Virus record (IMG/VR): IMGVR_UViG_2923318301_000004
Direction: 5' to 3' (one strand)
Source: a virus
Taxonomy: Duplodnaviria; Heunggongvirae; Uroviricota; Caudoviricetes
DNA: 24,630 nucleotides
Shown: piece by piece, positions 2,540-21,622 of the stretch
Position numbering within the stretch: the first letter of the stretch is position 1
How the letters are laid out: every line of letters begins with the position of its first letter
The notes under the pieces: model-generated
Databases searched by the model: none
The model's input: only the letters and a program-made list of their open reading frames with translations
What the model was told of the DNA's origin: nothing
Program-made: the position numbers and the translations under genes

Positions 2540-4543
2540 ATGATTATGAGTGAAAATGATACAATCCCAAAGAAGTCTACAAGTCAGATTAACAAAGCGG
2601 TATTCTTTACATCTGCTTTGCTAATTTTCCTTCTTGTCGCCTTTGCCGCCGTATTCCCGGATGTCGCCGACAAAAATTTTAAACTACTTCAGCAACAAAT
2701 CTTCACGAATGCCAGCTGGTTCTACATCCTTGCTGTGGCCCTGATTTTACTGAGTGTCACGTTCCTTGGACTCTCACGCTACGGTGATATCAAGCTGGGC
2801 CCGGACCATGCGCAGCCTGATTTCAGCTACCACTCCTGGTTTGCGATGCTTTTTTCGGCAGGGATGGGGATCGGCCTGATGTTCTTTGGCGTTGCCGAAC
2901 CTGTAATGCATTATCTTTCGCCACCCGTTGGCACTCCAGAAACCGTTGCGGCAGCTAAGGAAGCAATGCGTCTGACCTTTTTCCACTGGGGACTGCACGC
3001 ATGGGCAATTTATGCCATTGTGGCGCTGATTCTGGCGTTCTTCAGTTACCGTCACGGTCTGCCTTTAACTCTGCGCTCCGCACTCTATCCCATTATTGGC
3101 GATCGCATATACGGACCTGTAGGACATGCGGTTGATATTTTCGCTGTTATAGGCACGGTCTTTGGCGTTGCGACATCACTGGGTTACGGTGTTTTGCAGG
3201 TGAATGCCGGTTTGAACCATCTTTTCGGGGTGCCCATCAATGAAACGGTGCAGGTAATTCTGATCGTGGTCATCACGGGGTTAGCGACGATTTCAGTGGT
3301 GTCCGGTCTGGATAAGGGAATACGTATCCTGTCTGAACTCAATCTGGGTCTGGCTTTGTTGCTCCTGGCGCTGGTCCTGTGTCTGGGACCAACCGTGCTT
3401 CTGCTGAAGTCATTTGTGGAAAATACGGGCGGTTATCTTTCGGAACTGGTGAGTAAAACGTTCAACCTTTACGCGTATGAGCCCAAGTCGAGCAACTGGC
3501 TGGGGGGCTGGACATTACTGTACTGGGGATGGTGGCTTTCATGGTCGCCGTTTGTGGGGATGTTCATCGCACGGGTCTCCCGCGGGCGAACCATTCGCGA
3601 GTTTGTCACCGGCGTGCTGTTTGTTCCCGCGGGTTTTACGCTAATGTGGATGACGGTGTTTGGTAACAGCGCGATCTATCTCATTATGAACCAGGGGGCC
3701 ACAGACCTCGCCAATACTGTTCAGCAGGATGTGGCGCTGGCCCTGTTTAATTTCCTGGAGCATTTCCCGTTCTCTTCTGTGCTGTCATTCATTGCAATGG
3801 CGATGGTCATCGTCTTCTTTGTAACGTCTGCTGATTCGGGGGCAATGGTTGTGGATACTCTGGCATCAGGTGGAGTGGCAAACACACCCGTCTGGCAGCG
3901 AATATTCTGGGCCTCGCTCATGGGCATTGTTGCAATTGCGCTTCTCCTTGCCGGAGGGCTAAGTGCGCTGCAAACGGTGACAATAGCGAGTGCATTGCCC
4001 TTCTCAGTGATCTTACTAATATCTATATACGGACTTTTAAAAGCTTTGCGCCGGGATTTGACCAAGCGTGAAAGCCTGAGCATGGCGACAATTGCTCCTA
4101 CGGCTGCACGTAACCCAATTCCTTGGCAGAGAAGGTTACGCAATATCGCGTATCTGCCGAAGCGATCTCTTGTGAAACGTTTTATGGACGACGTTATCCA
4201 GCCTGCCATGACGCTGGTTCAGGAGGAACTGAACAAGCAGGGGACGATAAGCCACATTAGTGATGCAGTCGACGATCGTATTCGTCTTGAAGTCGATTTG
4301 GGCAACGAGCTGAATTTTATATATGAAGTGAGGCTTCGCGGGTATATCTCACCGACCTTCGCGCTCGCCGCAATGGATAATGATGAGCAGCAGACTGAAC
4401 AACATCGATATTATCGCGCTGAGGTTTATCTCAAAGAAGGCGGTCAAAATTATGATGTGATGGGCTGGAACCAGGAACAGCTGATTAATGACATACTGGA
4501 CCAGTACGAAAAACACCTGCACTTCCTGCACCTGGTTCGTTAA
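2540..4543 (+). CDS. BCCT-family (betaine/carnitine/choline) transporter, BetT-like with a long C-terminal cytoplasmic extension
   Basis: 667-aa ORF with many hydrophobic segments and BCCT signature stretches (WTLLYWGWWLSWSPFVGMFIARVSRGRTIREF; SADSGAMVVD); overall collinear with E. coli BetT as I recall it, including the roughly 170-aa hydrophilic tail. Confidence 0.85.
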   Translation: MIMSENDTIPKKSTSQINKAVFFTSALLIFLLVAFAAVFPDVADKNFKLLQQQIFTNASWFYILAVALILLSVTFLGLSRYGDIKLGPDHAQPDFSYHSWFAMLFSAGMGIGLMFFGVAEPVMHYLSPPVGTPETVAAAKEAMRLTFFHWGLHAWAIYAIVALILAFFSYRHGLPLTLRSALYPIIGDRIYGPVGHAVDIFAVIGTVFGVATSLGYGVLQVNAGLNHLFGVPINETVQVILIVVITGLATISVVSGLDKGIRILSELNLGLALLLLALVLCLGPTVLLLKSFVENTGGYLSELVSKTFNLYAYEPKSSNWLGGWTLLYWGWWLSWSPFVGMFIARVSRGRTIREFVTGVLFVPAGFTLMWMTVFGNSAIYLIMNQGATDLANTVQQDVALALFNFLEHFPFSSVLSFIAMAMVIVFFVTSADSGAMVVDTLASGGVANTPVWQRIFWASLMGIVAIALLLAGGLSALQTVTIASALPFSVILLISIYGLLKALRRDLTKRESLSMATIAPTAARNPIPWQRRLRNIAYLPKRSLVKRFMDDVIQPAMTLVQEELNKQGTISHISDAVDDRIRLEVDLGNELNFIYEVRLRGYISPTFALAAMDNDEQQTEQHRYYRAEVYLKEGGQNYDVMGWNQEQLINDILDQYEKHLHFLHLVR

Positions 4544-4605
4544 TAGCAACATGCCGTCCTGGGGGCGGCAATTATTATCCCGGCCGCAATATGAGGGAAT
4601 GCAGA

Positions 4606-6162: not shown

Positions 6163-7029
6163 CTAAGCGAGGTTCTTGTTTTCAAATTGTTCCGGACTGA
6201 GGCCGCCACACCAACTGTGCCGCCGCCACCGATTGTAATCACATTCGATATAATTAAACACCGTTGCCCGCATTATTTCCCGGCTGATAAAGTGTTCTCC
6301 ATGGATACATTCCACTTTCAGCGAATGAAAGAAGCTTTCCACGCAGGCATTATCGTAGCAGCAACCTTTTGCGCTCATACTTCCACGCAGATTATGCCGC
6401 TTCAGTTGCGCCTGATAATCTGCTGAACAGTACTGGCCTCCACGGTCCGTGTGAACGATAACGTTCCGGGGCCTCTTACGCCGCCACAGCGCCATCTGCA
6501 GGGCATCGCAGGCCAGTTGCGCCGTCATGCGTGGCGACATTGACCAGCCAATAACGGCACGTGACCACAGGTCAATGACCACTGCCAGATACAGCCAGCC
6601 TTCATCTGTACGTAAGTACGTGATGTCTCCTGCCCACTTCTGGTTCGGGCCACTGGCGTAAAAATCCTGCTCCAACAGATTTTCTGACACAGGCAGGCCG
6701 TGTGCGCGGTAGCTGACCGGGCTGAACTTCCGGGAGGCCTTTGCCCTCAGTCCCTGACGGCGCAGGCTTGCCGCCACGGTTTTTACGTTAAAGGGGTAAC
6801 CCTGAGCACGCAGTTCATCCGTCAGGCGTGGGGCACCGTAACGCTGTTTTGACCGGGTAAAAGCCGCGAGGACAACGCTGTCGCAGTGTTGGCGGAACTG
6901 CTGACGCGTGCTTATCCTTGTCCGCCGCTGACACCACGTATACCAGCCGCTGCGGGCCACCCGGAGCACGCGGCACATTGCTTTGATGCTGAACTCAGCC
7001 TGATGTTTTTCAATAAAGACATACTTCAT
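6163..7029 (-). CDS. insF: IS3 OrfB (InsF) DDE transposase
   Basis: 288-aa [35 protein letters not shown]...; DDE motif region WAGDITY...HTDRGGQY...[12 protein letters not shown]. Confidence 0.9.
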
Positions 7030-7391: not shown

Positions 7392-8451
<1,060 letters not shown>

Positions 8452-8455
<4 letters not shown>

Positions 8456-8869
8456 TGCCACTGCTGGATAAGCTGCGTGAGCAGTACGGGGTCGGACCGC
8501 TATGCAGCGAACTGCATATTGCCCCGTCAACGTATTACCACTGTCAGCAACAGCGACATCATCCGGATAAACGCAGTGCCCGTGCGCAGCGCGATGACTG
8601 GCTGAAGAAAGAGATACAGCGCGTATACGATGAAAATCACAAGGTATACGGTGTGCGTAAAGTCTGGCGTCAGTTGTTACGGGAAGGTATCAGAGTGGCC
8701 AGATGCACTGTGGCACGTCTCATGGCGGTTATGGGACTTGCCGGTGTTCTCCGGGGTAAAAAGGTCCGTACGACCATCAGCCGGAAAGCCGTTGCCGCAG
8801 GCGACCGCGTAAACCGTCAGTTCGTGGCAGAACGACCTGACCAGCTGTGGGTGGCTGATTTTACTTACG
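8452..8869 (+). pseudogene. IS629 OrfB transposase, 5' exon (interrupted by group II intron)
   Basis: [34 protein letters not shown]...QLWVADFTY then diverges at the intron 5' end (GTGTG at 8870). Confidence 0.8.
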
Positions 8870-9540
8870 GTGTGCCCGGAGTTCAGGGCGGGCATGGATG
8901 CTTAAATGAACCGCGAGTCTGTCTGGAATATTGAGCCGGTAACTCACGATGAGAAACCCAACAATCCCACCGGGTGTGACGGTGGAGAACCTGAGCGGCA
9001 GTGACCTGCGGCATGCCCGCAGGGTGATGTAACCCGCTGACAACGGGGATTGAGGCGAGATCACTAAGCCGAGATGATCCTCAAGGTTAAGTACTGAAAG
9101 GCTGAAGAACATGAACCCGTTAATCCGCCTCTGTGGGTTGAAAACGTCACCACGGCCTACGTGATCTGACAGGCCGTGCAGGAGGAACTGGCAGTGATAC
9201 GTAAGCACTGCCGGTCGAAGGTGTTTTGACATGTATGCGAAACACCGGGGCAGCAGCGTCTATCACGCTTGCGTTGCTGACTTCTGCCAACTTGCGGCAA
9301 GCAAGGATAAAGAGTGCGACGGGCAGCCTCCTCAGTATGCCTGAGTCCAGGCAGGTAAACCGGGGAAGGTCAGCGACGGATGTTAAGGGGGCATGGCTCC
9401 GATGACGCGCTGGCTGGCGGAGCTTCCGTAGTAGTCCGCGATGGGGAAAGCCCATTACATGGCGAAGGGAAGCAGTTTGAATGTGTTTGCGACGTGAATT
9501 AACTGACCTAACGAGGTGAAGACCTTTGATAATCAGCGAA

Positions 9541-11049
9541 ATGCAACGCAAGCTTGCCACATGGGCAGTCACCGATCCGTCCCTACGGATTCAACGGCTG
9601 CTGCGTCTGATAACACAACCAGAATGGCTGGCTGAAGCGGCGCGGATCACGCTTTCATCAAAGGGGGCCCATACCCCCGGCGTTGATGGCGTGAACAAAA
9701 CAATGCTACAGGCCAGACTGGCTGTTGAGCTGCAAATCCTCAGGGATGAATTACTCTCAGGCCACTACCAGCCCTTGCCCGCCAGACGGGTTTACATCCC
9801 TAAAAGCAACGGCAAACTGCGACCACTGGGTATCCCCGCGTTGCGGGATCGTATTGTTCAGCGGGCCATGCTGATGGCGATGGAGCCGATATGGGAGAGT
9901 GATTTTCATACGCTCTCATATGGCTTCCGGCCTGAGCGCAGTGTCCACCACGCGATCCGCACGGTGAAATTACAGCTCACAGACTGTGGTGAAACCCGGG
10001 GACGCTGGGTGATTGAAGGCGACCTGTCCAGTTACTTCGACACCGTACATCATCGACTGCTGATGAAGGCTGTACGCCGCAGGATCAGTGACGCACGTTT
10101 CATGACTCTGCTGTGGAAAACCATCAAGGCGGGACATATCGATGTCGGTCTCTTTCGGGCGGCCAGTGAAGGTGTGCCACAGGGCGGTGTTATATCGCCG
10201 CTATTATCGAACATCATGCTGAATGAGTTCGATCAATACCTGCATGAGCGCTACCTGAGCGGGAAAGCCAGAAAAGATCGGTGGTACTGGAATAACAGTA
10301 TCCAACGGGGCCGAAGTACGGCGGTCAGAGAAAACTGGCAGTGGAAACCCGCGGTGGCGTACTGCCGCTATGCCGATGATTTTGTCCTCATCGTCAAAGG
10401 CACCAAAGCACAGGCGGAAGCCATCAGGGAGGAGTGTCGGGGTGTGCTCGAAGGCAGTCTGAAACTCAGGCTGAACATGGATAAGACTAAAATCACCCAT
10501 GTTAATGACGGCTTTATCTTTCTGGGGCACAGGATCATTCGCAAACGCAGTCGTTATGGCGAGATGCGAGTGGTCTCAACGATCCCGCAGGAGAAAGCCA
10601 GAAACTTCGCCGCATCGCTGACAGCACTGTTATCAGGCAACTACAGTGAAAGCAAAGTCGATATGGCTGAACAACTCAACCGAAAACTGAAAGGCTGGGC
10701 CATGTTCTATCAGTTCGTTGATTTTAAGGCCAAAGTCTTCAGTTATATCGACCGTGTCGTGTTCTGGAAGCTGGCTCACTGGCTGGCCCGCAAATACCGT
10801 ACAGGTATCGCTTCCCTGATGAGGTGGTGGTGTAAATCACCGAAACCGGGTCAGAGCAAAACGTGGGTTTTATTTGGTAAAACCAATCACGGCAAGCTCA
10901 GCGGCGAAATACTGTACCGGTTGGTGGGGCAAGGCAAGAAGCTGTTCCGCTGGCGGCTACCCGAAGGTAATCCCTATCTGAGGACGGAGACCAGAAACAC
11001 GTATACATCGCGCTTTACAGAAGTGGCAATGGCGTTCGCCAGCATTTAA
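9541..11049 (+). CDS. Group II intron-encoded protein (reverse transcriptase/maturase)
   Basis: RT motifs in order (RPLGIPALRDRIVQ; SYGFRPERS; YCRYADDFVLIV) followed by a maturase (X) domain; start assigned to the first ATG (MQRKLATW...) rather than the TTG at 9526 used by the ORF track. Confidence 0.85.
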   Translation: MQRKLATWAVTDPSLRIQRLLRLITQPEWLAEAARITLSSKGAHTPGVDGVNKTMLQARLAVELQILRDELLSGHYQPLPARRVYIPKSNGKLRPLGIPALRDRIVQRAMLMAMEPIWESDFHTLSYGFRPERSVHHAIRTVKLQLTDCGETRGRWVIEGDLSSYFDTVHHRLLMKAVRRRISDARFMTLLWKTIKAGHIDVGLFRAASEGVPQGGVISPLLSNIMLNEFDQYLHERYLSGKARKDRWYWNNSIQRGRSTAVRENWQWKPAVAYCRYADDFVLIVKGTKAQAEAIREECRGVLEGSLKLRLNMDKTKITHVNDGFIFLGHRIIRKRSRYGEMRVVSTIPQEKARNFAASLTALLSGNYSESKVDMAEQLNRKLKGWAMFYQFVDFKAKVFSYIDRVVFWKLAHWLARKYRTGIASLMRWWCKSPKPGQSKTWVLFGKTNHGKLSGEILYRLVGQGKKLFRWRLPEGNPYLRTETRNTYTSRFTEVAMAFASI

Positions 11050-11053
11050 ATGG

Positions 11054-11087
11054 AGAGCCGGATGCGCTGAAAGGTGCACGTCCGGTT
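11054..11087 (+). ncRNA. Group II intron domain V (catalytic hairpin)
   Basis: GAGCCGGATGCGCTGAAAGGTGCACGTCCGGTTC: about 34 nt, AGC triad near the 5' end, 2-nt bulge, GAAA tetraloop, immediately after the IEP stop codon and about 50 nt from the intron 3' end. Confidence 0.65.
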
Positions 11088-11111
11088 CGGGGAGGAGAGG
11101 CAGGGAAATAG

Positions 11112-11612
<501 letters not shown>

Positions 11613-11654
11613 GTTCACAGATAAAACACTCTCCAGGAAACCCGGGGCGGTTCA

Positions 11655-12792
11655 CTCATCTGCCGCTCTACCGCATCCCTCGACCATAATCCCGACTCAA
11701 TCAACGAACTACAAGCCATCGTCCTGAAGCCATGCCCACAAACCTCGACCTTCGTGTCATACCCCATTACGCGCAAAGCCTTGTTCACCGTATTCTCACT
11801 CATCGGCTTACGTGGATCGTGATCGCCCACAAAAATCAGCTCTCAATTTCCGCTCATGCTTTTGATCTTTTCCAAAATACTTAGGGCCTGCCGCGACAAA
11901 GGTACAAGGTGTGGTGTCCGCATCTTCGAGCCACGCTGAGAATGCTTGACTCCTTCCAGTTGCTCACGCTCACCTGGGATTGTCCACATAGCCGTTTCAA
12001 AATCTACTTCTGACCAGCGGGCAAAATGCAGCTCGCTCGAACGGATGAAAACCAATAAAGTGAGTTCAACCGCCAGCCGAGTTAACGGTCTGCCAGAATA
12101 GTGATCTATGCGATGAAGTAATTCAGGTATACGGTTCAGTTCAAGAGCTGCACGGTGCTGTCTTTTCGCCGTAGCAACCGCACCTGCAATCTCTTGCGCG
12201 GGGTTGTAGTCGATTAAGCCGCTCTGAACGGCAAAGCGCATAATCGCGGTAGTACGCTGCTGTAAACGGGCGGCAACTTCGAGCCGCCCGGATGACTCGA
12301 CTGCTTTAATGGGTACAAGAAGATCCCGCGTCTTCAGTTCCGCAATGTTCCGCTTACCGATAGCAGTAAAGAGATTATCCTCCAGACTTTTCAAAACACG
12401 AGCGCTATGCGATGCCGACCACTTCTGATTGCTGGCGTGCCAGTCTCTGGCGACTACTTCAACGTTATCGCCTCTTGTTCCTGTTCTACCTTAACAGCTT
12501 TCTTGTTTTCACTGGGATCGACACCATTAGCTAAAAGCTTACGAGCCTCATCCCGGCGTGCCCTGGCATCCGCCAACGACACTTCGGGGTATTTCCCCAA
12601 TGCCAGCATCTTCTCTTTACCGCCAAAGCGATAACGTAGCCGCCAGTATTTGGAGCCGTTAGGGTGAACCAGCAAAACCATGCCTTCACCGTCGGTCAGC
12701 TTATAGGCTTTTGCTTCAGGCTTAGCCGAACGAACCTTCACATCACTCAGAGCCATGATGAGTATCCTTTCAAGGGTTCTGTGTGGGTACAA
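11655..12792 (-). pseudogene. P4-type tyrosine integrase pseudogene (frameshifted, C-terminus removed by IS629)
   Basis: Three consecutive minus-strand ORF pieces (12454-12792 N-terminus MALSDVKVRSAKPEAKAYKLTDGEGMVLLVHPNGSKYWRLRYRF...; 11843-12394; 11615-11830) together cover a P4-like integrase but in different frames; the last piece abuts the IS629 end. Confidence 0.8.
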
Positions 12793-13210: not shown

Positions 13211-14143
13211 TTAAATTTCATATTTTGAAATTTCGCTGATTACATCATCCCCATATTTCTTAATCATGGAGGCAAAGAATTTATGTTCAATAAATTTCGC
13301 ATAGCCTAATTCTCCTTTAAGGGTTAGAATTTCTTTCTCAGATAAAACCCCACACACATAATAATGTATTTTACTTCTTAAAAGACGCTTTCTATCACGA
13401 CCTAAAGACAAATAACCATCAGTCGTAATAGTTACACCAGTTACATGTCTATTAAACTTCCTTGAGGTAAAAACTGTTTTCTCATGGTTTATTTTAATAT
13501 TCCTAAGATTTACTACGTTAAGAACTTCCCTTACTAACTTAGGAACATCAAATAAAGCTCCTTTGACTTTGGTGCTAAACGTAAGATCATCAGCATACCT
13601 TGAGTAGGTAATACCCAAATCCTTGCATCTTTTCGATATTTCCTCATCGAAGAAATACATTACTGTATTTGAAATAATGGGAGAAGAAGGTGCTCCAACA
13701 CTTAGGCGTAACGGGCTATTTCTTCTTAACTTCCAGAAGAAAAGATTTTTAAGAACAAAGATATCAGTATCAGTTAGTTCAACGCCATAATCTTTTAAGA
13801 CAGATAAAAGATTATGGGGTTTGATACTCATAAAAAAGTTTTTAAAATCCATTTTAAGCAAATAATCATTATTACAATGCATTAACGCATTAGATCTAAT
13901 ACTTTTATCGGCTTCATAAGCGAAAGCATTTTCATGAACTTTCAAATTAGCCAACATATGATTGATTACTACCTTCTGTAAGGCTTTAACTTGCCTAGCT
14001 GGTTGTGCAATTAATCTATATCCATTACCATTTCTTTTGGCGATAGGATAAATTTTATATCTGCGTGGAATAGTAACAATATACCTTTTAGCCTCTTCTT
14101 CGCTAAGAAAAAGACCTTTTGAAATATAACTTAGCAACTCCAT
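13211..14143 (-). CDS. Retron-type reverse transcriptase
   Basis: About 310 aa, RT domain only (no maturase or endonuclease); motifs SNALMH (NAxxH), FKNFF, VGAPSSP, YSRYADDLTFS (YADD) and NRHVTGVTI (retron VTG); start ATG lies 1 nt after the upstream effector stop (TAGaATG); collinear with Ec86 RT as I recall it. Confidence 0.85.
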   Translation of the reverse strand: MELLSYISKGLFLSEEEAKRYIVTIPRRYKIYPIAKRNGNGYRLIAQPARQVKALQKVVINHMLANLKVHENAFAYEADKSIRSNALMHCNNDYLLKMDFKNFFMSIKPHNLLSVLKDYGVELTDTDIFVLKNLFFWKLRRNSPLRLSVGAPSSPIISNTVMYFFDEEISKRCKDLGITYSRYADDLTFSTKVKGALFDVPKLVREVLNVVNLRNIKINHEKTVFTSRKFNRHVTGVTITTDGYLSLGRDRKRLLRSKIHYYVCGVLSEKEILTLKGELGYAKFIEHKFFASMIKKYGDDVISEISKYEI

Positions 14144-14144
14144 T

Positions 14145-15131
14145 CTAAGCCCCTCCACGCACGATATTGATTTGATTTAGAGCATTTTTCCTTTTTTTTG
14201 CAGTCTCGTCCATATCTTTAGCATCCATACTTAAGTAAGATTGTCGGATTGCAACCTTAATATTCATAGAATCCTTTATTTTACCACTAGCACTGATACC
14301 AAATTTAAGTTTACTCTCTCTATGCCCTCGGGAATAGAAGTAGTCTGTACCACTGTAAGATAATGATGAGGTTAATTTCATCTTTTCAAGCAAATAAAGT
14401 AAACGAGTTATTATTTTTTGTGGCACATCTATATCCATACAGTATAGTGCCCACTCTATTTCGCTTTTCTTGATTGGTTCTGATAAAAGGATTATTTCGT
14501 AAATCAATATAGCTAGGTGCCCAGTATTTTCAGGGTTATATCGCTCCGTTTTTTTTACACGTTTTAATCTAGAATGAATATCATGGTAGATAAGCTCAAC
14601 CTCATCATATTTCATACGATCCGATTTTGGCCATGGATAAACTGATACTGAGGCCTCATCTATTTTTTTAAGATACTCCAAAGGGCCTAAATATATAAAA
14701 GAAGATCTAGCAGGAATATTTTTTCGTTCATTTCCCTCAATCTCCTCAAATGGTGCGACTACATGCAATTTTTGAGCTAGAGACTTCCTATTAACAAATA
14801 ATCCAAGCTCAACTAACGAACCTGCACTTTCTAAACAGATAACAACTAATGTTGAAATATTTGCAATATCATCTTCAAAGCTCATTAGATCTGAATATGC
14901 CCCCTCTCTGAAGTAGTCATGGAAGTTCTCAGCTAAAATAAGAGAATCTGACAATTCAGGTTTGTGGCCTGCTACATAAGTAAATATGTGGTCTCGTACA
15001 CTCATTGGAGTGGAATTTATCGGCCCACCACAAACAAAAATAATAGGAGGCATGAACTGAACAGTGAAATTTGAATATTTCAAATCTCCAAACTGCTCTT
15101 GTAATGCATTCATATATGCAGAATCACTCAC
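14145..15131 (-). CDS. Retron effector, putative nucleoside 2-deoxyribosyltransferase-like (NDT) domain plus C-terminal putative DNA-binding domain
   Basis: 328-aa ORF between the structured non-coding region and the RT; N-terminal region PPIIFVCGGPI...ICLESAGSLVELGLF resembles the Rossmann-like NDT fold with a candidate catalytic Glu; likely GTG start at 15131 with AGGGGGT as RBS (alternative ATG at 15113). AT-rich codon usage like the RT. Confidence 0.6.
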   Translation of the reverse strand: MSDSAYMNALQEQFGDLKYSNFTVQFMPPIIFVCGGPINSTPMSVRDHIFTYVAGHKPELSDSLILAENFHDYFREGAYSDLMSFEDDIANISTLVVICLESAGSLVELGLFVNRKSLAQKLHVVAPFEEIEGNERKNIPARSSFIYLGPLEYLKKIDEASVSVYPWPKSDRMKYDEVELIYHDIHSRLKRVKKTERYNPENTGHLAILIYEIILLSEPIKKSEIEWALYCMDIDVPQKIITRLLYLLEKMKLTSSLSYSGTDYFYSRGHRESKLKFGISASGKIKDSMNIKVAIRQSYLSMDAKDMDETAKKRKNALNQINIVRGGA

Positions 15132-16040: not shown

Positions 16041-16588
16041 TCCTGTATATCGTTAATGTCATTCAGGCGTTGCTGAAAACGCAGATGTTGTGCCGGGGTG
16101 TAAGAACCCTGGCAATCACGAATCATCCCGGGGTCAGGCATCAAACCGGATTCATCCAGGATCTCACGATAATCCCCGGCAATTTCAGGCGGTGTTATTG
16201 CCAGCTGGCGAACCAGAGCACTGCGTAATATACGGGACGCAACGTCAACCCCTCCGCGCCCCTTCAGGAACGGAGCCAGTGCAGATGTCAGGGCTGCCCC
16301 ATTCGCCTGCATAAAATTGCTGAGAGCGGCTTCTGTGCAGGCCTCCATCAGTAAATGCTGCGAGTAAATGCATTCGCGCGCAGCACAGTTAATTTGCCAT
16401 TTCAGCACATCCAGACGTTCCCGCAGTAATTCGAGCTGTCGGGCATAATCTGCTGGTTTTTCTGTGGCAGCGAGGAGAGATGTTATCTGTTGTTCAACGG
16501 CTTTTCGGCTCTCATTATGTCCGGCCCACAGAATACGGGCATTCCGAAAACTGGTAAGTGCCTGGTCAGGCGTGCCTCGGGCCGTCAT
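16037..16588 (-). CDS. psu: Psu-like protein (P4 polarity suppression / capsid decoration)
   Basis: 183 aa; segments LELLRERLDVLKWQINCAARECIYSQHLL, FMQANGAALTSALAPFL and YTPAQHLRF resemble P4 Psu as I recall it; start overlaps the sid stop. Confidence 0.65.
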   Translation of the reverse strand: MTARGTPDQALTSFRNARILWAGHNESRKAVEQQITSLLAATEKPADYARQLELLRERLDVLKWQINCAARECIYSQHLLMEACTEAALSNFMQANGAALTSALAPFLKGRGGVDVASRILRSALVRQLAITPPEIAGDYREILDESGLMPDPGMIRDCQGSYTPAQHLRFQQRLNDINDIQE

Positions 16589-17328
16589 ACTGCTTTCTCC
16601 TTCTCAGCAAGTTCCTGACGAACCTTAATTTTATGCATAGCTGCCGGAGAGAGTTGATTACTGAAATCCAGACGCGCCGCATAATCCGGGGCAACTCCCG
16701 CCAGTTTAAACACCGGGTCCTGCTCAGGCATCGCATCGTTAGCCAGAGCCGGTCTGGTGATATGTTTATGAATAAAGTCTTTCAGCACTGTGTCCGGGTC
16801 ATTAACTGAATTCACCACACCCACAACGGCACTGGCTTCCCGGCCCATTGTGGATTTAAGCAGGCTCAGCGTCTGAATAAGCGCTTTTCCATGCGACTGC
16901 ATAAAATCCTCCCAGATTTGTTTTGCGCGAATATCCACAAGAATGTTATGCGCGTGGATATACTTTCCGGCTAATTCTGCAGCTTTCTGCGGCAAAAGTG
17001 CATTTTCGCTTTCCTGAGCCGCCAGCAGCTCATCAAAATCCTCAAGCGTTTCTCGTCCCAGCGCAATTTCCGTGCGCAGTTTTTTCATTTCCTTTGAGAC
17101 CACGCCCTGACTTTCACGAAACAGCGTGCGCCACTCCTCATTCAGTGTGTTCGTCGTGGCTTCCATTTCAGCGCGACGCTGGCGGATTGTCGCAATATTA
17201 TCCGCTGCCGCTTTCTGCTGACGACGTGCTTCAAGCCATGCGTTTCTGGCTGTGTTCATGGTTTCCAGTGCCCGCTGCGTTACAGCCGGAAAAGTGGAAA
17301 GGTTGTTATTCACTGCGGTGTTGTTCAT
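16585..17328 (-). CDS. sid: Sid-like protein (P4 capsid size determination external scaffold)
   Basis: 247 aa, strongly helical and charged; EWRTLFRESQGVVSKEMKKLR and position directly upstream of psu match P4 Sid as I recall it. Family call rests mainly on gene context. Confidence 0.55.
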   Translation of the reverse strand: MNNTAVNNNLSTFPAVTQRALETMNTARNAWLEARRQQKAAADNIATIRQRRAEMEATTNTLNEEWRTLFRESQGVVSKEMKKLRTEIALGRETLEDFDELLAAQESENALLPQKAAELAGKYIHAHNILVDIRAKQIWEDFMQSHGKALIQTLSLLKSTMGREASAVVGVVNSVNDPDTVLKDFIHKHITRPALANDAMPEQDPVFKLAGVAPDYAARLDFSNQLSPAAMHKIKVRQELAEKEKAV

Positions 17329-17506
17329 GACTTCTCCTGTCGGGTTGGTTCGTTACGTCAATTGTGTCGTGGCTGACACAAGCACACTATCGGTGCTCAG
17401 TGTGTGGTGGCTGGCACAACGGACGCTTGCGGTTATTCAGACGTGGCTATGAAAGCCAGCCAGATAAAAATGCCCTCTGTTTCAGTCTGCTTTATGTCCC
17501 TGATGC

Positions 17507-17694
17507 GGTGGAACAGGTGAAACATGTGTTACAGCTTTGTTTTATAAGGCATTTATATACACTGCACCGGTGGAACATCGCGGGTAACAAGGTGGAACAG
17601 CGGATTGGCTGGCGTTACATCTGTTCCACCTCACTATTTCAGAAGGTGGAACAGGTTCAGCCCTGTAAAATACGGTTGTTCCACCTGTTTCACC
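17507..17694. repeat. Iteron cluster: 8 copies of TGTTCCACC / GGTGGAACA (two are TGTTTCACC variants) in both orientations
   Basis: Copies at 17507, 17516, 17569, 17591, 17622, 17646, 17677, 17686; in the non-coding gap between the alpha-like primase gene and sid; closely resembles the TGTTCACC octamers of P4 ori/crr that are bound by alpha. Confidence 0.6.
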
Positions 17695-17728
17695 TGTTAC
17701 CCTTAATAAATAAGACTCACGCAAAGCC

Positions 17729-20401
17729 TTAACCCGGCACCTCGCTGTTGAAGACATAGAGCCTGCGGGGATTCATCTCTGGCGGGCGAATGGTTGTCTG
17801 GAGTTTGCCATCAGTGGAGGGCAGCAGGTATCCACGATCTGCGCACAGACGCGCCACCTTGCGCGGGTCAAATCCCCTGCAGATTTCTTTCCAGCCGGAC
17901 GGCATGACATAGAACGTAGTGACAGCTTCCGTGCCCTGCGCGGTACTGCCTTTCTCCACCCTGCGCCAGCCCACCATATTGCCGGGGCGGTTGCGCTCGT
18001 CATACCAGTCTGCAAAGCGGCTGTACTGATTCGCGGTAAAGAAACTGCGAACCTGCTCCAGTGCGGCGATATCTTCCTGATTGGCGGTGTGCCCGCGATC
18101 TTTCAGCCATGCGTTCAGGCAGACGCGGGTTGCCCGCAGTGCTTCACCCTCAGGCCAGCCGGTGATACCCAGACGGGTTGCCAGTTCACCTGCCATCGCC
18201 ACCAGAGCAAAGCGGTTCACAGCCCGGCCCACCTGATTGCCTGCATCTTTCGGAGTCAGGGCGGCAGCATATTCCTTCATCAGCGATTTTGCCTGTGCCG
18301 TTAGTCCGTTAAGATCAGCGGTCAGTGCTTTCAGCCACTCCCGGAACGGCGAACCGTAGTAGCAGGACGTGGCCCATTCAAGATGCTCTGCCAGAGCCTT
18401 GCCGCTGTCGAAGCCGTGCAGCTCCTCAAAAACGCCAAACTTCCCGGAATCGCTGGGGATCTGGATCATCCTGACTTCCATCCCGGCAAAAGTACGCTCA
18501 CCGGCCTTTGCCGCATGTTCGGTCAGAGACAACTCGCCAGTTGAAAAGAACAACAGGCGCCAATGCTTACGGGTACGCAGCTCACCGTCCGTACCGGCAC
18601 GGCCCTTGCCCTGACCGTTTGCCAGCATGTAGGCGATATTGCCTGCCTCGCGTCCGTCAACTTCCCGGATCTCATCAAGCATCATGGCGGCATCGTTGCG
18701 GCGGCTGGCGCATCCCTCCAGCGCGTTGCCGGTGGCCCGCCATGTCTGCCAGTAGTCAGGCCCGCCGCAGACGGAGGTTGCCGCTTTCATGGTGGTGGTC
18801 TTACCGTCTGTCGATTCCCCTTTGAGGTGGTAGCCGCCGCCGTCCATACCAACCAGCCGTAACAGTGGTGCAGCAAAGGCCAGGCTGACAGCAAATGCCA
18901 CGCGGGAGTTGCCGGTACAGTAGCGGGATACATGCTCCCGCCATTCCTCTGTTGTGCCCGACACGCGGAAATCACGCCCCTGCACGGAAGTGGTCTGGAG
19001 AATGACACCCTCTGCACCTTCACCGCTGACCTCATCCTGCAGGACGTAAACCTGACCATGCCAGCCAGTACGACTGACGCAGGTCACGCGGCGTTCCGGT
19101 TTACACAGTGAGATATATTCCATCAGGCGTGCGCGTGCCTCACCGGTGGTGCTGATATAAGACAGCCCGTTAACCAGCAATACCCGGCGCAGTTCCTCAC
19201 CACTGCCGCTCAGCATTTCCATCGGCATCGCCCAGCGGCGACACTCACCCCACGTATCTTCCCATTCCAGCAGTCGTCCGAAGTTACCGCCATCGGCATC
19301 GCAGGTGATTGCCGTCACGCGCAGCGGGCTGCATATTTTGACGTTCTGGATCTCCGTCTCACCGTTGCGCTGTACCTGCTTTTCATACCAGAGATATTCC
19401 TGGGTAAGACGGAACCCGTGCGGCAGTTGCGTGCGGCCCTCCCCGCACAGCACCAGACCGTTACGAAAGGCTTCACGGGCGCGGGTAATACCGTGCTCCC
19501 GATGGAAGTCATTCCAGTCGGCCTTAATCTCTCCCGGTGGCAGCGTCATCCAGCCGCCAACAGCTTTTGCCGCCCGTTCAGCAAAGGCTCTGCCGGGATT
19601 CTCACCCCCGTCCTGAAAATCGTTATCACCGGCGATGATAATTTTTACCTCAGGCCAGCGTGCCCGCAGCGACTGCGCCACATTGGGCAGGTTGCCCGCA
19701 GATATGGCAGCCACTACGCATCCGGCAGTGAGCTGACTTACCGTCAGCGCCGTAGCGTAACCTTCGGTAATCACCACCTGTACCGGTGGTTCAGACGGTA
19801 ACGGGCTGAGCGACACAAACGCGCCTTTCATCGTGCTGCCGGGCAGTATGCTTTTTTCACCCGTCGGGGCGATAAGCTGTGCACCAGTCACGGCTCCGGT
19901 GTTGGTCGTGAGTGGTAACAGCAGGGAACCGGCAGGAAAATCCTTACCGCTGATATGCTGCACGCTTCCGGTCAGAGAGGCCGGGTATCCGGCGAACCCT
20001 TTTCCTGTCAGATAGGCGCTTTCTCCCGTGTGGCTCTCTTTCATCAGCGCCGCCACGGTAAGACCCATGTCGCGTTTAGGGGCTTTTTTTCTGGCAGGCT
20101 TAACAGGCAGTTCCTGCACATCCGGCACATTAAGCACCTGCGCCACCTCCTGCGCAGCCTTTCTGACGCTGTAACCGGTTACGAGCTTAACCAGATCCAG
20201 ACCGTCACCATTGCCACACTGGCTGCAGATCCACGTCCCGCGCCCGTCAAGGTCATCAAGGCGAAAACGATCCTTGCCCCCACATTTCGGGCAGGGACCG
20301 TGCCTGCCGTTTTCAGGTACATCAATACGCAGCATCTGGAGAATAACGGGCCATTTCCCCCGTGCGGCGGCTGAAATCTGCGTAACCGTCTGTATTGTCA
20401 T
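17729..20401 (-). CDS. P4 alpha-like primase-helicase (zinc-binding N-terminus, TOPRIM primase, C-terminal P-loop helicase)
   Basis: 890 aa; CPKCGGKDRFRLDD...WICSQCG zinc ribbon; TOPRIM-like VVITEGYATALT...IIAGDNDFQDGGENPG; Walker A GESTDGKTT. Confidence 0.85.
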   Translation of the reverse strand: MTIQTVTQISAAARGKWPVILQMLRIDVPENGRHGPCPKCGGKDRFRLDDLDGRGTWICSQCGNGDGLDLVKLVTGYSVRKAAQEVAQVLNVPDVQELPVKPARKKAPKRDMGLTVAALMKESHTGESAYLTGKGFAGYPASLTGSVQHISGKDFPAGSLLLPLTTNTGAVTGAQLIAPTGEKSILPGSTMKGAFVSLSPLPSEPPVQVVITEGYATALTVSQLTAGCVVAAISAGNLPNVAQSLRARWPEVKIIIAGDNDFQDGGENPGRAFAERAAKAVGGWMTLPPGEIKADWNDFHREHGITRAREAFRNGLVLCGEGRTQLPHGFRLTQEYLWYEKQVQRNGETEIQNVKICSPLRVTAITCDADGGNFGRLLEWEDTWGECRRWAMPMEMLSGSGEELRRVLLVNGLSYISTTGEARARLMEYISLCKPERRVTCVSRTGWHGQVYVLQDEVSGEGAEGVILQTTSVQGRDFRVSGTTEEWREHVSRYCTGNSRVAFAVSLAFAAPLLRLVGMDGGGYHLKGESTDGKTTTMKAATSVCGGPDYWQTWRATGNALEGCASRRNDAAMMLDEIREVDGREAGNIAYMLANGQGKGRAGTDGELRTRKHWRLLFFSTGELSLTEHAAKAGERTFAGMEVRMIQIPSDSGKFGVFEELHGFDSGKALAEHLEWATSCYYGSPFREWLKALTADLNGLTAQAKSLMKEYAAALTPKDAGNQVGRAVNRFALVAMAGELATRLGITGWPEGEALRATRVCLNAWLKDRGHTANQEDIAALEQVRSFFTANQYSRFADWYDERNRPGNMVGWRRVEKGSTAQGTEAVTTFYVMPSGWKEICRGFDPRKVARLCADRGYLLPSTDGKLQTTIRPPEMNPRRLYVFNSEVPG

Positions 20402-20781
20402 ACTTCCCCCTGATACAACGTCACACCGGTACTGCAGAAGTCATCAAAGGCCGCCGGAAGCGTGCGGTACATCTCCGCCATCACTTCACAGCCGCGCGCG
20501 GTCAGTACCGGCGGCGCGGTCAGCAGTGACGGCTCCAGCATGTCAGTCAGCAGTGCCAGCGCGGCAGCGGCGCCCTGTGCTTCGCCGTACTCGTTAATCA
20601 GTACGCACTCGATATGCAGCGCAATGGCCATTTCAATACGCTCCACCGTCAGGCTGTGCGGACCATACTGATCACTGCCAGTTTCGTTCAGCATTTTCTG
20701 CCGCCATGCTGAAGCAATAGCCCGCCGGTAAAGCGCGGTGGTCATTTCTGCCGGGAAAATGGAAACCTGCGGCTGGTTCAT
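20398..20781 (-). CDS. Hypothetical protein (P4-like left-operon gene preceding alpha)
   Basis: 127-aa ORF whose stop overlaps the alpha start (ATGA); position corresponds to the epsilon/orf151 region of P4; no motif recognised. Confidence 0.45.
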   Translation of the reverse strand: MNQPQVSIFPAEMTTALYRRAIASAWRQKMLNETGSDQYGPHSLTVERIEMAIALHIECVLINEYGEAQGAAAALALLTDMLEPSLLTAPPVLTARGCEVMAEMYRTLPAAFDDFCSTGVTLYQGEV

Positions 20782-21093: not shown

Positions 21094-21453
21094 TCAGAGA
21101 AACTTTGAATAGTGACCGTCGTCAGGCTCAGCAGAACGCCGTATGCTACGCTCCCGCCAGCGGATAAATAGCACAGACGGATGCAGTGTCAGCGGGCCGG
21201 AACCACTACCGCCAGCAGGAGCTGGTGCAGGCTTCAAGAGCGGTACATCAAACAGGCGCGTATACCGCTGTTCAAACCATGCCAGAGGGCAGGAAGAAAG
21301 CTGGTTGTCGCTGTCATGACGTATCAGCACTTCACAGCTGAATTCAGGATTAACCAGCGCCACAGAGGGCGAGGCTTCTATTAATCGGATAATCGTGACC
21401 GTCCAGCCACGTTCATGCTGCCAGCGTTCGCCGGGGTGCGGATAATTACGCAT
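21094..21453 (-). CDS. Hypothetical protein
   Basis: Start taken at ATG 21453 (MRNYPHPGERW...), which overlaps the stop of the upstream small ORF (ATGCGTAA); the ORF track begins 10 codons earlier. Confidence 0.4.
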   Translation of the reverse strand: MRNYPHPGERWQHERGWTVTIIRLIEASPSVALVNPEFSCEVLIRHDSDNQLSSCPLAWFEQRYTRLFDVPLLKPAPAPAGGSGSGPLTLHPSVLFIRWRERSIRRSAEPDDGHYSKFL

Positions 21454-21622
21454 GTTCACCTCCGCAGGGAATGCGCCCGGCAAAGCTCAGTACATAGTCC
21501 GGGGCAAGTCTGCGCCGCGCTGACCGCTCGTTATCTGCGGTGATCCTTAACATCACAGGACGGGCATTGCGTTGACTGCGGTTGATCGCCGCAAATAACC
21601 AGGTACACTTCTGTTTAGCCAT
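21446..21622 (-). CDS. Hypothetical small protein (58 aa), first gene of the alpha operon
   Basis: ATG at 21622 preceded by GAGGTAACGAAG; this frame is the 3' part of a longer 244-aa ORF on the track that I consider spurious upstream of this start. Confidence 0.4.
   Translation of the reverse strand: MAKQKCTWLFAAINRSQRNARPVMLRITADNERSARRRLAPDYVLSFAGRIPCGGEHA

Follow-up and report, generated by a model that had tools for sequence, protein, structure and literature searches.

The DNA considered here is a 24,630-nucleotide stretch catalogued as IMG/VR virus record IMGVR_UViG_2923318301_000004 (Caudoviricetes), and we refer to this whole stretch as the window. Judged from its sequence, it is an Escherichia coli P4-like satellite prophage at tRNA-Leu, with a defence hotspot past delta. 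Between its alpha-like replication gene and its sid homologue lies a cluster of short repeats (17507-17702). We consider it likely, with a probability of about 0.8, that this cluster represents a single initiator-plus-origin module in the style of the staphylococcal pathogenicity islands (SaPIs), and not a pair of replication origin (ori) and cis replication region (crr) as in P4, the sid promoter lying outside it.

According to this proposal, an 890-amino-acid protein encoded immediately upstream of the cluster would be a fusion of primase, helicase and initiator. Its C-terminal winged helix would bind the 9-bp repeats GGTGRAACA, about nine sites on one side and two to three on the other would bracket a 37-bp AT-rich core, and the bound protein would melt this core. 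The DUF927 AAA+ ring could then load itself to serve as replicative helicase, with the first primers for the host polymerase coming from the P4-type primase at the N-terminus, if SaPI Rep/PriRep5 and P4 alpha are a guide. The initiator gene and the origin directly 3' of it would move and evolve as a unit, and the repeat sequence would define its specificity type.

The initial annotation described an iteron cluster at this place, and the cluster is real: eight exact copies of TGTTYCACC lie at 17507-17694, in both orientations and in intergenic DNA. When both strands of the whole window were searched, every exact match fell within these 188 bp; six copies are TGTTCCACC and two are TGTTTCACC, with three on the plus strand and five on the minus strand. 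Dinucleotide-preserving shuffles of the window (n=100) contained a mean of 0.34 copies and at most 2, and none of the 100 reached 8. Allowing up to one mismatch revealed no second cluster in the window, just four scattered extra matches at chance level. Four degenerate copies, in register with full copies of relatives in the alignment, bring the total to about 12 sites, which are arranged as follows:

17569-17702: distal repeat block, on the side of the initiator gene, with six exact and three degenerate copies
17686-94 (+), 17677-85 (+), 17645-53 (-), 17622-30 (+), 17591-99 (-) and 17569-77 (-): exact copies of the distal block
17695-17702, 17613-17621 and 17582-17590: degenerate copies of the distal block, in register with the full copies of relatives
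17528-17564: AT-rich core of 37 bp, the presumed DNA-unwinding element, between the proximal pair and the other repeats
17507-17533, minus strand: proximal repeat block, on the sid side, with tandem exact copies at 17507-15 and 17516-24

The TGTAACAC element at 17525-33 adjoins the proximal tandem pair, is constant across repeat types and was counted as the fourth degenerate copy. At least two repeats are found on either side of the core. The GC content is 0.25 over 17520-17559, and the region's least stable 30-mers begin between 17528 and 17535, with a free energy (dG) of -32.4 compared to a regional mean of -41.0 (standard deviation 3.0).

All of these sites lie between the stop of the alpha-like gene (17729) and the start of sid (17328), where RefSeq annotates nothing. 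The first exact repeat is located 35 bp past the initiator stop (26 bp if the degenerate copy is included) and the last one 179 bp before the sid ATG. Relatives differ in the intergenic region by indels of 1, 7 and 9 nucleotides, which argues against coding. No exact DnaA box is present in or beside the cluster, matches with one mismatch being at chance level only, and no intrinsic terminator was predicted after the initiator gene. A promoter and terminator scan of 17250-17800 returned nothing, Delta-dependent promoters being outside its coverage. Rfam gave no family in the cluster region, the matches in the window being limited to an IS3 ALIL pseudoknot and a group II intron.

Two conserved boxes flank the repeats:

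17710-17721, minus strand: left box CGTGAGTCTTAT, directly past the stop codon, invariant in a seven-sequence alignment that includes repeat types A, B and C
17455-17470, minus strand: right box TTTTTATCTGGCTGGC (also given as TTTnTCTGGCnGGC), about 40 bp past the last repeat

The core of the left box, TCTTAT(T)TTT, is present too in L019, L023 and L025 (L numbers designate the related loci described below), and so is the right-box motif TCTGGCnGGC, which is invariant across repeat types. The right box recurs at 9462-9472 in P4 (L002), downstream of the ori repeats, and as CCTGGCTGGC at 6680-6691 in the plasmid homologue L059, where it again comes after the repeats. As a guess, these boxes could be a primase start site (for example a CTGGCTGGC box) or a site for a host factor.

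The candidate reader of the repeats is encoded next to them:

17729-20401, minus strand: initiator gene ('alpha-like', 890 amino acids), with Zn-ribbon primase, Toprim, DUF927 AAA+ helicase and C-terminal domain
17732-17866 (codons), minus strand: putative specificity determinant, residues 846-890, predicted to form a recognition helix (846-855) and a wing (strands at 869-871 and 879-884)

The identification of this gene as alpha-like applies only to its primase domain, which is 38% identical to that of P4 alpha over residues 1-316, but the helicase and the C-terminus differ from P4 alpha. Similarity in BLASTP and hhalign stops at residue ~316-321, with an hhalign probability of 100% for the primase. 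Pfam recognizes Zn_Ribbon_Prim, Toprim_3 and DUF927 in the window protein, and Zn_Ribbon_Prim, Toprim_3, D5_N, DUF5906 and Pox_D5 in P4 alpha. The C-terminal profile showed no similarity to residues 640-777 of P4 alpha (hhalign probability 0.2%), so that repeat binding is not transferable from P4 alpha by homology.

The closest relationships of the remaining part point instead to staphylococcal elements. The DUF927 part matches in sequence SaPI Rep (8tch, E=8e-15) and Cch of the staphylococcal cassette chromosome mec (SCCmec; 5dgk, E=2e-13), and the same two proteins were the top structural matches of the C-terminal region in Foldseek, where the sequence identity to the solved Reps is ~13-15%. 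The C-terminus (~780-890) is predicted by the model to form a helical bundle and a winged-helix-like fold. The Zn-ribbon cysteines, the Toprim acidic residues, Walker A (GESTDGKTT, residues 528-536) and Walker B (MLDE) are invariant across homologues in a 17-sequence alignment. SaPI Rep acts as the initiator and also loads itself as a helicase, binding the repeats through a winged helix at its C-terminus (PMC9371898). The SaPI ori consists of 6-12 repeats immediately downstream of rep with an AT-rich centre, and PriRep5 is a fusion of primase and Rep (PMC9371898).

The same organization was found well beyond the window. A database search showed that proteins of this family, 57-100% identical, are widely distributed among the Enterobacterales. 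We collected 55 loci, with one genome per species, identified repeats by de novo k-mer counting and assessed the 50 loci with an intact gene. Six to 12 copies of some 8-9-mer, starting 25-50 bp past the stop, were present in 46 of the 50, with the same order of orientations (+ + [+] - + + - - gap - -) and an AT-rich gap. In three of the four exceptions the cluster is ~1.1 kb downstream of the gene and the fourth is a pseudogene; overall, 49 of the 50 loci have 6-13 repeats. The displaced clusters are those of L039, L047 and L056 (Klebsiella spallanzanii, Scandinavium and Apirhabdus), at ~8700-9050 and with 10-13 copies of GTGGGAACA, which implies an insertion between gene and origin.

Irrespective of the gene that follows (sid, delta or an unrelated one), the cluster stays by the initiator gene, and it does so in L050 and L051 as well. 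In these two loci (L050 4560-6701, Brenneria, type B; L051 4599-6695, Serratia, type A) the protein has the DUF927 and C-terminal domains without the P4-type Zn-ribbon/Toprim primase. They keep the repeats nevertheless, and therefore the primase domain looks like an exchangeable add-on.

The repeat sequence itself is lineage-specific and falls into about ten types, among them GGTGGAACA (window), GGTGTAACA, GGGGTAACA, cTGGTAACA, GTGGTAACA, GTGGATACA, CGGTTACA, GTAGTACA and GTGGGAACA. The window's own motif is confined to the DNA downstream of the gene in its closest relatives (at least 95% identity) and to the distant locus L051. An E. coli plasmid record, circular and 12,152 bp long, encodes an integrase and a 33%-identical TOPRIM/DUF927 protein (L059); 25 bp past the stop of the latter there are three direct copies of GTTGGTTCA, 42 AT-rich bp and three inverted copies, in an opposed arrangement. 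This record offers circumstantial support, at the level of sequence, for autonomous replication. Another record, OX345456, labelled as a plasmid and encoding a 68%-identical homologue, was discarded, being a linear 7-kb contig of a fragmented assembly. A further locus, L017, comes from a record titled Vagococcus sp. WN89Y and has a 66%-identical initiator of enterobacterial type with repeats; it is likely a contamination or a mislabelled assembly.

P4 alpha binds type 1 octamers at ori and crr, according to the P4 GenBank annotation and general knowledge, and the initial annotation had likened the cluster of the window to these sites. The repeat is, however, the 9-mer TGTTYCACC and not TGTTCACC, which is absent from the cluster and occurs in the window at 11782 and 21453 only, at chance level. 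The P4-style arrangement of ori plus crr is likewise not found: there is a single cluster and no pair in the window, in the 24.4-kb RefSeq stretch reaching tRNA-Leu, or in the 46 related loci, each of which has one cluster and no second within 5 kb on either side. The cluster therefore fails three defining features of P4 ori/crr, namely the octamer, the origin-binding domain of alpha and the bipartite arrangement. The proposal that it is a replication origin or a cis replication region fares better: it is very probably the origin of the element, read by the adjacent primase-helicase, but not a P4 ori/crr pair.

The position of the cluster matches both P4 sites at once. In the P4 record, the alpha stop (4636) is followed by the annotated terminator t-alpha and by crr (4291-4590, two 120-bp repeats with octamers), and the type 1 octamers of ori (9310-9413) precede the sid ATG (9583) by 170 bp. 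In the window, the replication gene and sid are co-directional, as initially noted, both being on the minus strand, so that one cluster stands at the place of crr, 3' of the replication gene, and at the same time at that of ori, ~170-180 bp before the sid ATG. An auxiliary element of the crr kind, which would bind the initiator and stimulate replication starting at a separate origin, would have exactly the location of this cluster, which directly follows the replication gene; both ori and crr are required by P4 (from the annotation of its record and general knowledge), and on sequence grounds an origin without these repeats could exist. However, no second repeat cluster accompanies the first in any of the stretches mentioned above, and the cluster has an AT-rich core of its own and occupies the P4 ori position upstream of the sid promoter (Psid), which makes a purely auxiliary role improbable.

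The initial annotation also expected a late promoter for sid within the cluster. The promoter elements are located elsewhere, 90-150 bp beyond the last repeat:

16585-17328, minus strand: sid homologue (247 amino acids), first gene of the sid-psu-delta late operon
17361-17418, minus strand: Psid-like late promoter, with TGT-N12-ACA dyads at 17401-17418 and 17363-17380, their centres 38 bp apart
17361-17366, minus strand: CACAAT, a -10-like hexamer that is part of the Psid-like promoter

We take TGT-N12-ACA dyads to be the sites of the Ogr/Delta activators in P2/P4 late promoters. P4 Psid has such dyads at 9494-9511 and 9533-9550, followed by CACAATT; it aligns with the promoter of the window, and the spacing of dyads and -10 element to the sid ATG is nearly equal in the two. 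From these elements, transcription of sid is predicted to start near 17354-17355. Across the related loci the dyads go with sid/delta and the repeats go with the initiator gene. As far as sequence can tell, Psid adjoins the origin and is not part of it.

Could the repeats be regulatory operators only, serving autoregulation or copy control of the initiator, or read-through and expression of sid-psu-delta? Initiators that bind repeats often act as repressors or 'handcuff' as well, two co-directional operons flank the cluster, and the lack of a predicted intrinsic terminator after the initiator gene fits such a role. Nevertheless, the cluster remains by the initiator gene where the downstream gene is not sid, and the Psid elements are outside the cluster and match P4 Psid on their own. 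Moreover, repeats around an AT-rich core 3' of the gene of a self-loading helicase are a documented origin layout (PMC9371898). We therefore regard operators alone as equally improbable, while a regulatory role beside the origin function is possible.

A different line of evidence links the repeats to the C-terminus of the initiator. Four pairs of proteins that are 94-98% identical have different repeat types (L019/L030, L019/L020, L023/L024 and L025/L028). Every repeat copy is changed in L019/L030, L025/L028 and L023/L024, although these elements are 96-98% identical, and in L019/L030 and L025/L028 the spacers, the flanks and most of the gene are nearly identical despite the switch. Profiles of mismatches over the whole locus show the repeat region as a hotspot in switch pairs only, whereas in same-type pairs it is conserved above the neighbouring coding DNA. 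L019 and L030 differ at 8 residues in the putative specificity segment. Their coding differences bunch in ~40 nucleotides (residues ~860-871), and they are separated from the first repeat by ~85 nucleotides of near-identical DNA, which indicates that they do not belong to one recombination tract with the repeats.

Substitutions were counted in seven independent switch pairs and 15 independent same-type pairs, and the protein was scanned with 45-residue sliding segments (57 in total). Within residues 846-890 there were 45 substitutions in 392 positions for switch pairs and 13 in 584 for same-type pairs (odds ratio 5.7, p=3e-9). In the sliding scan only the C-terminal end (826-890) was enriched, the best of the 57 segments having p=4e-8. 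Residue 870 changed in six of the seven switch pairs and in one of the 15 same-type pairs, and the switch-linked positions map to the predicted recognition helix and wing. We infer that residues 846-890 set repeat specificity.

In the conserved wing motif D-G-[K/R]-x-Q, residue 866 (codon 17804-17806) is a lysine with types A, B and C, which have a GGTG/GGGG 5' half, and an arginine with all TGGTAACA-like and other types, a difference that also holds inside the Xenorhabdus pair L023/L024 (96% identical); this pattern reflects few independent events. Separately, a patch ~900-1300 bp upstream of the initiator gene is hypervariable in L018/L044, L019/L030 and L025/L028 (corresponding to ~21094-21483 of the window and upstream). 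It was considered as a switch-linked region and rejected, since it is equally variable in the same-type pairs L018/L044 and L013/L041; it may be a determinant of helper interaction or immunity.

A further idea is that the repeats are bound by a different protein, from the element or from the helper phage, such as the DUF5375 protein or a helix-turn-helix regulator. The small P4 protein Cnr modulates alpha binding, and the upstream patch does differ in some switch pairs. Its equal variation in same-type pairs takes away this support. Within the initiator, only the winged-helix end covaries with the repeat type, and L050 and L051 keep the repeats in a different gene context. A binder other than the initiator is therefore more improbable still. 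Finally, a chance or selfish repeat without function is effectively refuted by the shuffles, by a layout conserved across Enterobacterales at 57-100% protein identity, and by the conservation of the repeat region above the neighbouring coding DNA in same-type pairs.

Some observations weigh against the reading of the cluster as a one-piece origin with its adjacent initiator. The stability of the AT-rich core is only moderately extreme, within the top 2.5% of the whole window, and the copies directly flanking the core have the same orientation, with opposed copies only further out, in contrast to the opposed arrangement of SaPIs. L059 is a distant homologue, whose episomal state is known from the deposited assembly only. 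The searchable literature yielded no binding, melting or replication data for this element.

With respect to specificity, the 846-890 segment was picked post hoc, although the unbiased sliding scan agrees with it, and the specificity residues are at most ~150 nucleotides from the repeats, so linkage could contribute to the covariation. No simple code from residue to base was found: residue 870 varies inside type A (L004), and L051 has type A repeats with different wing residues. Position 282 is the only single column that separates type A from type B across all lineages. A comparison of types A and B in the window's own clade (90% identity) gave no enrichment at the C-terminus, since the first 200 residues are hypervariable in general; the signal comes from the closer sister pairs.

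The surroundings of the module are those of a P4-like element. In the RefSeq annotation of one E. coli genome with this region, tRNA-Leu and a tyrosine integrase are followed on one strand by small regulatory genes, an Icd-like one among them, a DUF5375 gene, the "TOPRIM and DUF927 domain-containing protein", the intergenic region, the sid homologue, psu, ogr/Delta and a retron St85 pair. RefSeq and Pfam together identify the P4-like core set (integrase, DUF5375, primase, the sid/psu pair of the Psu family and Ogr_Delta), and an Ogr/Delta-dependent late promoter is present. The Sid homologue is 24% identical to P4 Sid (E=1e-12) and gives a weak match to the Psu family of Pfam. The confirmation of Psu, Ogr_Delta, DUF5375 and this remote Sid homologue thus indicates a P4-like satellite prophage. 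The RefSeq label of the sid homologue, 'septation initiation protein', apparently arose from misreading 'Sid'.

Many E. coli chromosomes match the 400-bp intergenic region at 100% identity, and it is found with at least 90% identity in 325 of 5,426 complete E. coli genomes, where it is unannotated. Against phage records, blastn of 16500-20500 gave no match, and tblastn gave partial and distant matches only, P4 being matched in the primase domain only.

Beyond the late operon, a reverse transcriptase of the retron St85 family and its effector are encoded at 13211-15131 on the minus strand, directly past delta (RefSeq), a site known as a defence hotspot of P4-like satellites; Rfam reported no retron non-coding RNA family at the gathering threshold. 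At ~8150-11610 there is a transposase of the IS3 family split by a group II intron. The IS3 gene is recognizable by an ALIL frameshift pseudoknot at 8410-8526 (RF01497), and the intron comprises ltrA at 9526-11049 and an RF00029 match at 11053-11139. Beside it, a frameshifted second tyrosine integrase (~11618-12756) suggests tandem or decayed islands beyond the satellite.

P4-like satellites have been reported from over 30% of Enterobacterales genomes (PMC8628076). The surveys of P4-like satellites in the searchable literature treat "alpha" as one core gene and do not mention origins, crr or iterons; no paper on "DUF927" dealing with P4-like satellites was found there, and full-text matches to TGTTCACC were limited to primer sequences of unrelated work. 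If our reading is correct, a large subgroup of P4-like satellites would have a helicase and an origin reader unlike those of P4 and of the staphylococcal-island kind, and its origin would form one cassette linked to the gene and exist as discrete specificity types. Such a scheme would link the replication modules of Gram-negative and Gram-positive satellites and provide a testable map for replication, incompatibility and the engineering of delivery vectors built on P4. It extends known principles, with no new mechanism, and is mechanistically expected.

More tentatively, and with somewhat less than even confidence, we suggest that the subgroup combines a chimeric initiator (P4 primase with a helicase and reader of SaPI-Rep/Cch type) and a one-piece origin in at least ten mutually exclusive types, diversified by concerted change of the repeats and of a few wing residues (~860-871). 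In that case co-resident satellites would replicate without cross-talk, and the types would constitute a natural series for reading a protein-DNA recognition code. It is also conceivable, as a speculation, that the ori and crr of P4 descended from such a single cluster, which was divided as the replication operon changed its arrangement relative to sid. This would explain why the single cluster of the window stands at both P4 positions.

Among known systems, the iteron plasmids with Rep_3 initiators (RepA, pi, TrfA) share with this element the repeats for initiator binding beside an AT-rich unwinding element, and in them too the repeats define replicon specificity. The proposed initiator of the window is, however, a helicase-primase and not a WH1-WH2 Rep that recruits DnaB, and its cluster has no exact DnaA box.

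The likeness to P4 comprises the integrase at tRNA-Leu, DUF5375, sid, psu and delta, two TGT-N12-ACA dyads in Psid, the homologous primase domain with the identity given above, a similar repeat (GGTGAACA in P4, GGTGGAACA in the window) and a proximal tandem pair of repeats that is preceded by an AT-rich spacer. On the other hand, the repeat of the window is one base longer, its proximal pair is oppositely oriented relative to sid, and its one cluster contrasts with an ori and crr that are 4.5 kb apart in P4. The initiator of the window is without the D5_N/DUF5906 superfamily 3 helicase and the Pox_D5 origin-binding domain, no terminator is predicted after its gene where P4 has the annotated t-alpha, and the replication and sid operons are co-directional in the window and divergent in P4.

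In comparison with the SaPIs, the element of the window is an enterobacterial P4-like satellite exploiting P2-like helpers, its primase is of the P4/DnaG type with Zn-ribbon and Toprim, its repeats are of 9 bp as opposed to 5-6 bp, and the blocks beside its AT-rich core have the same orientation where those of SaPIs are opposed. What the two have in common is the design of the replication module. The helicase is homologous and is fused to a primase as in PriRep5, 6-12 short repeats (eight exact and four degenerate in the window) lie just past the stop codon on both sides of an AT-rich core, the repeat sequences are lineage-specific, and a C-terminal winged helix, predicted in the case of the window, would be the reader of the origin.

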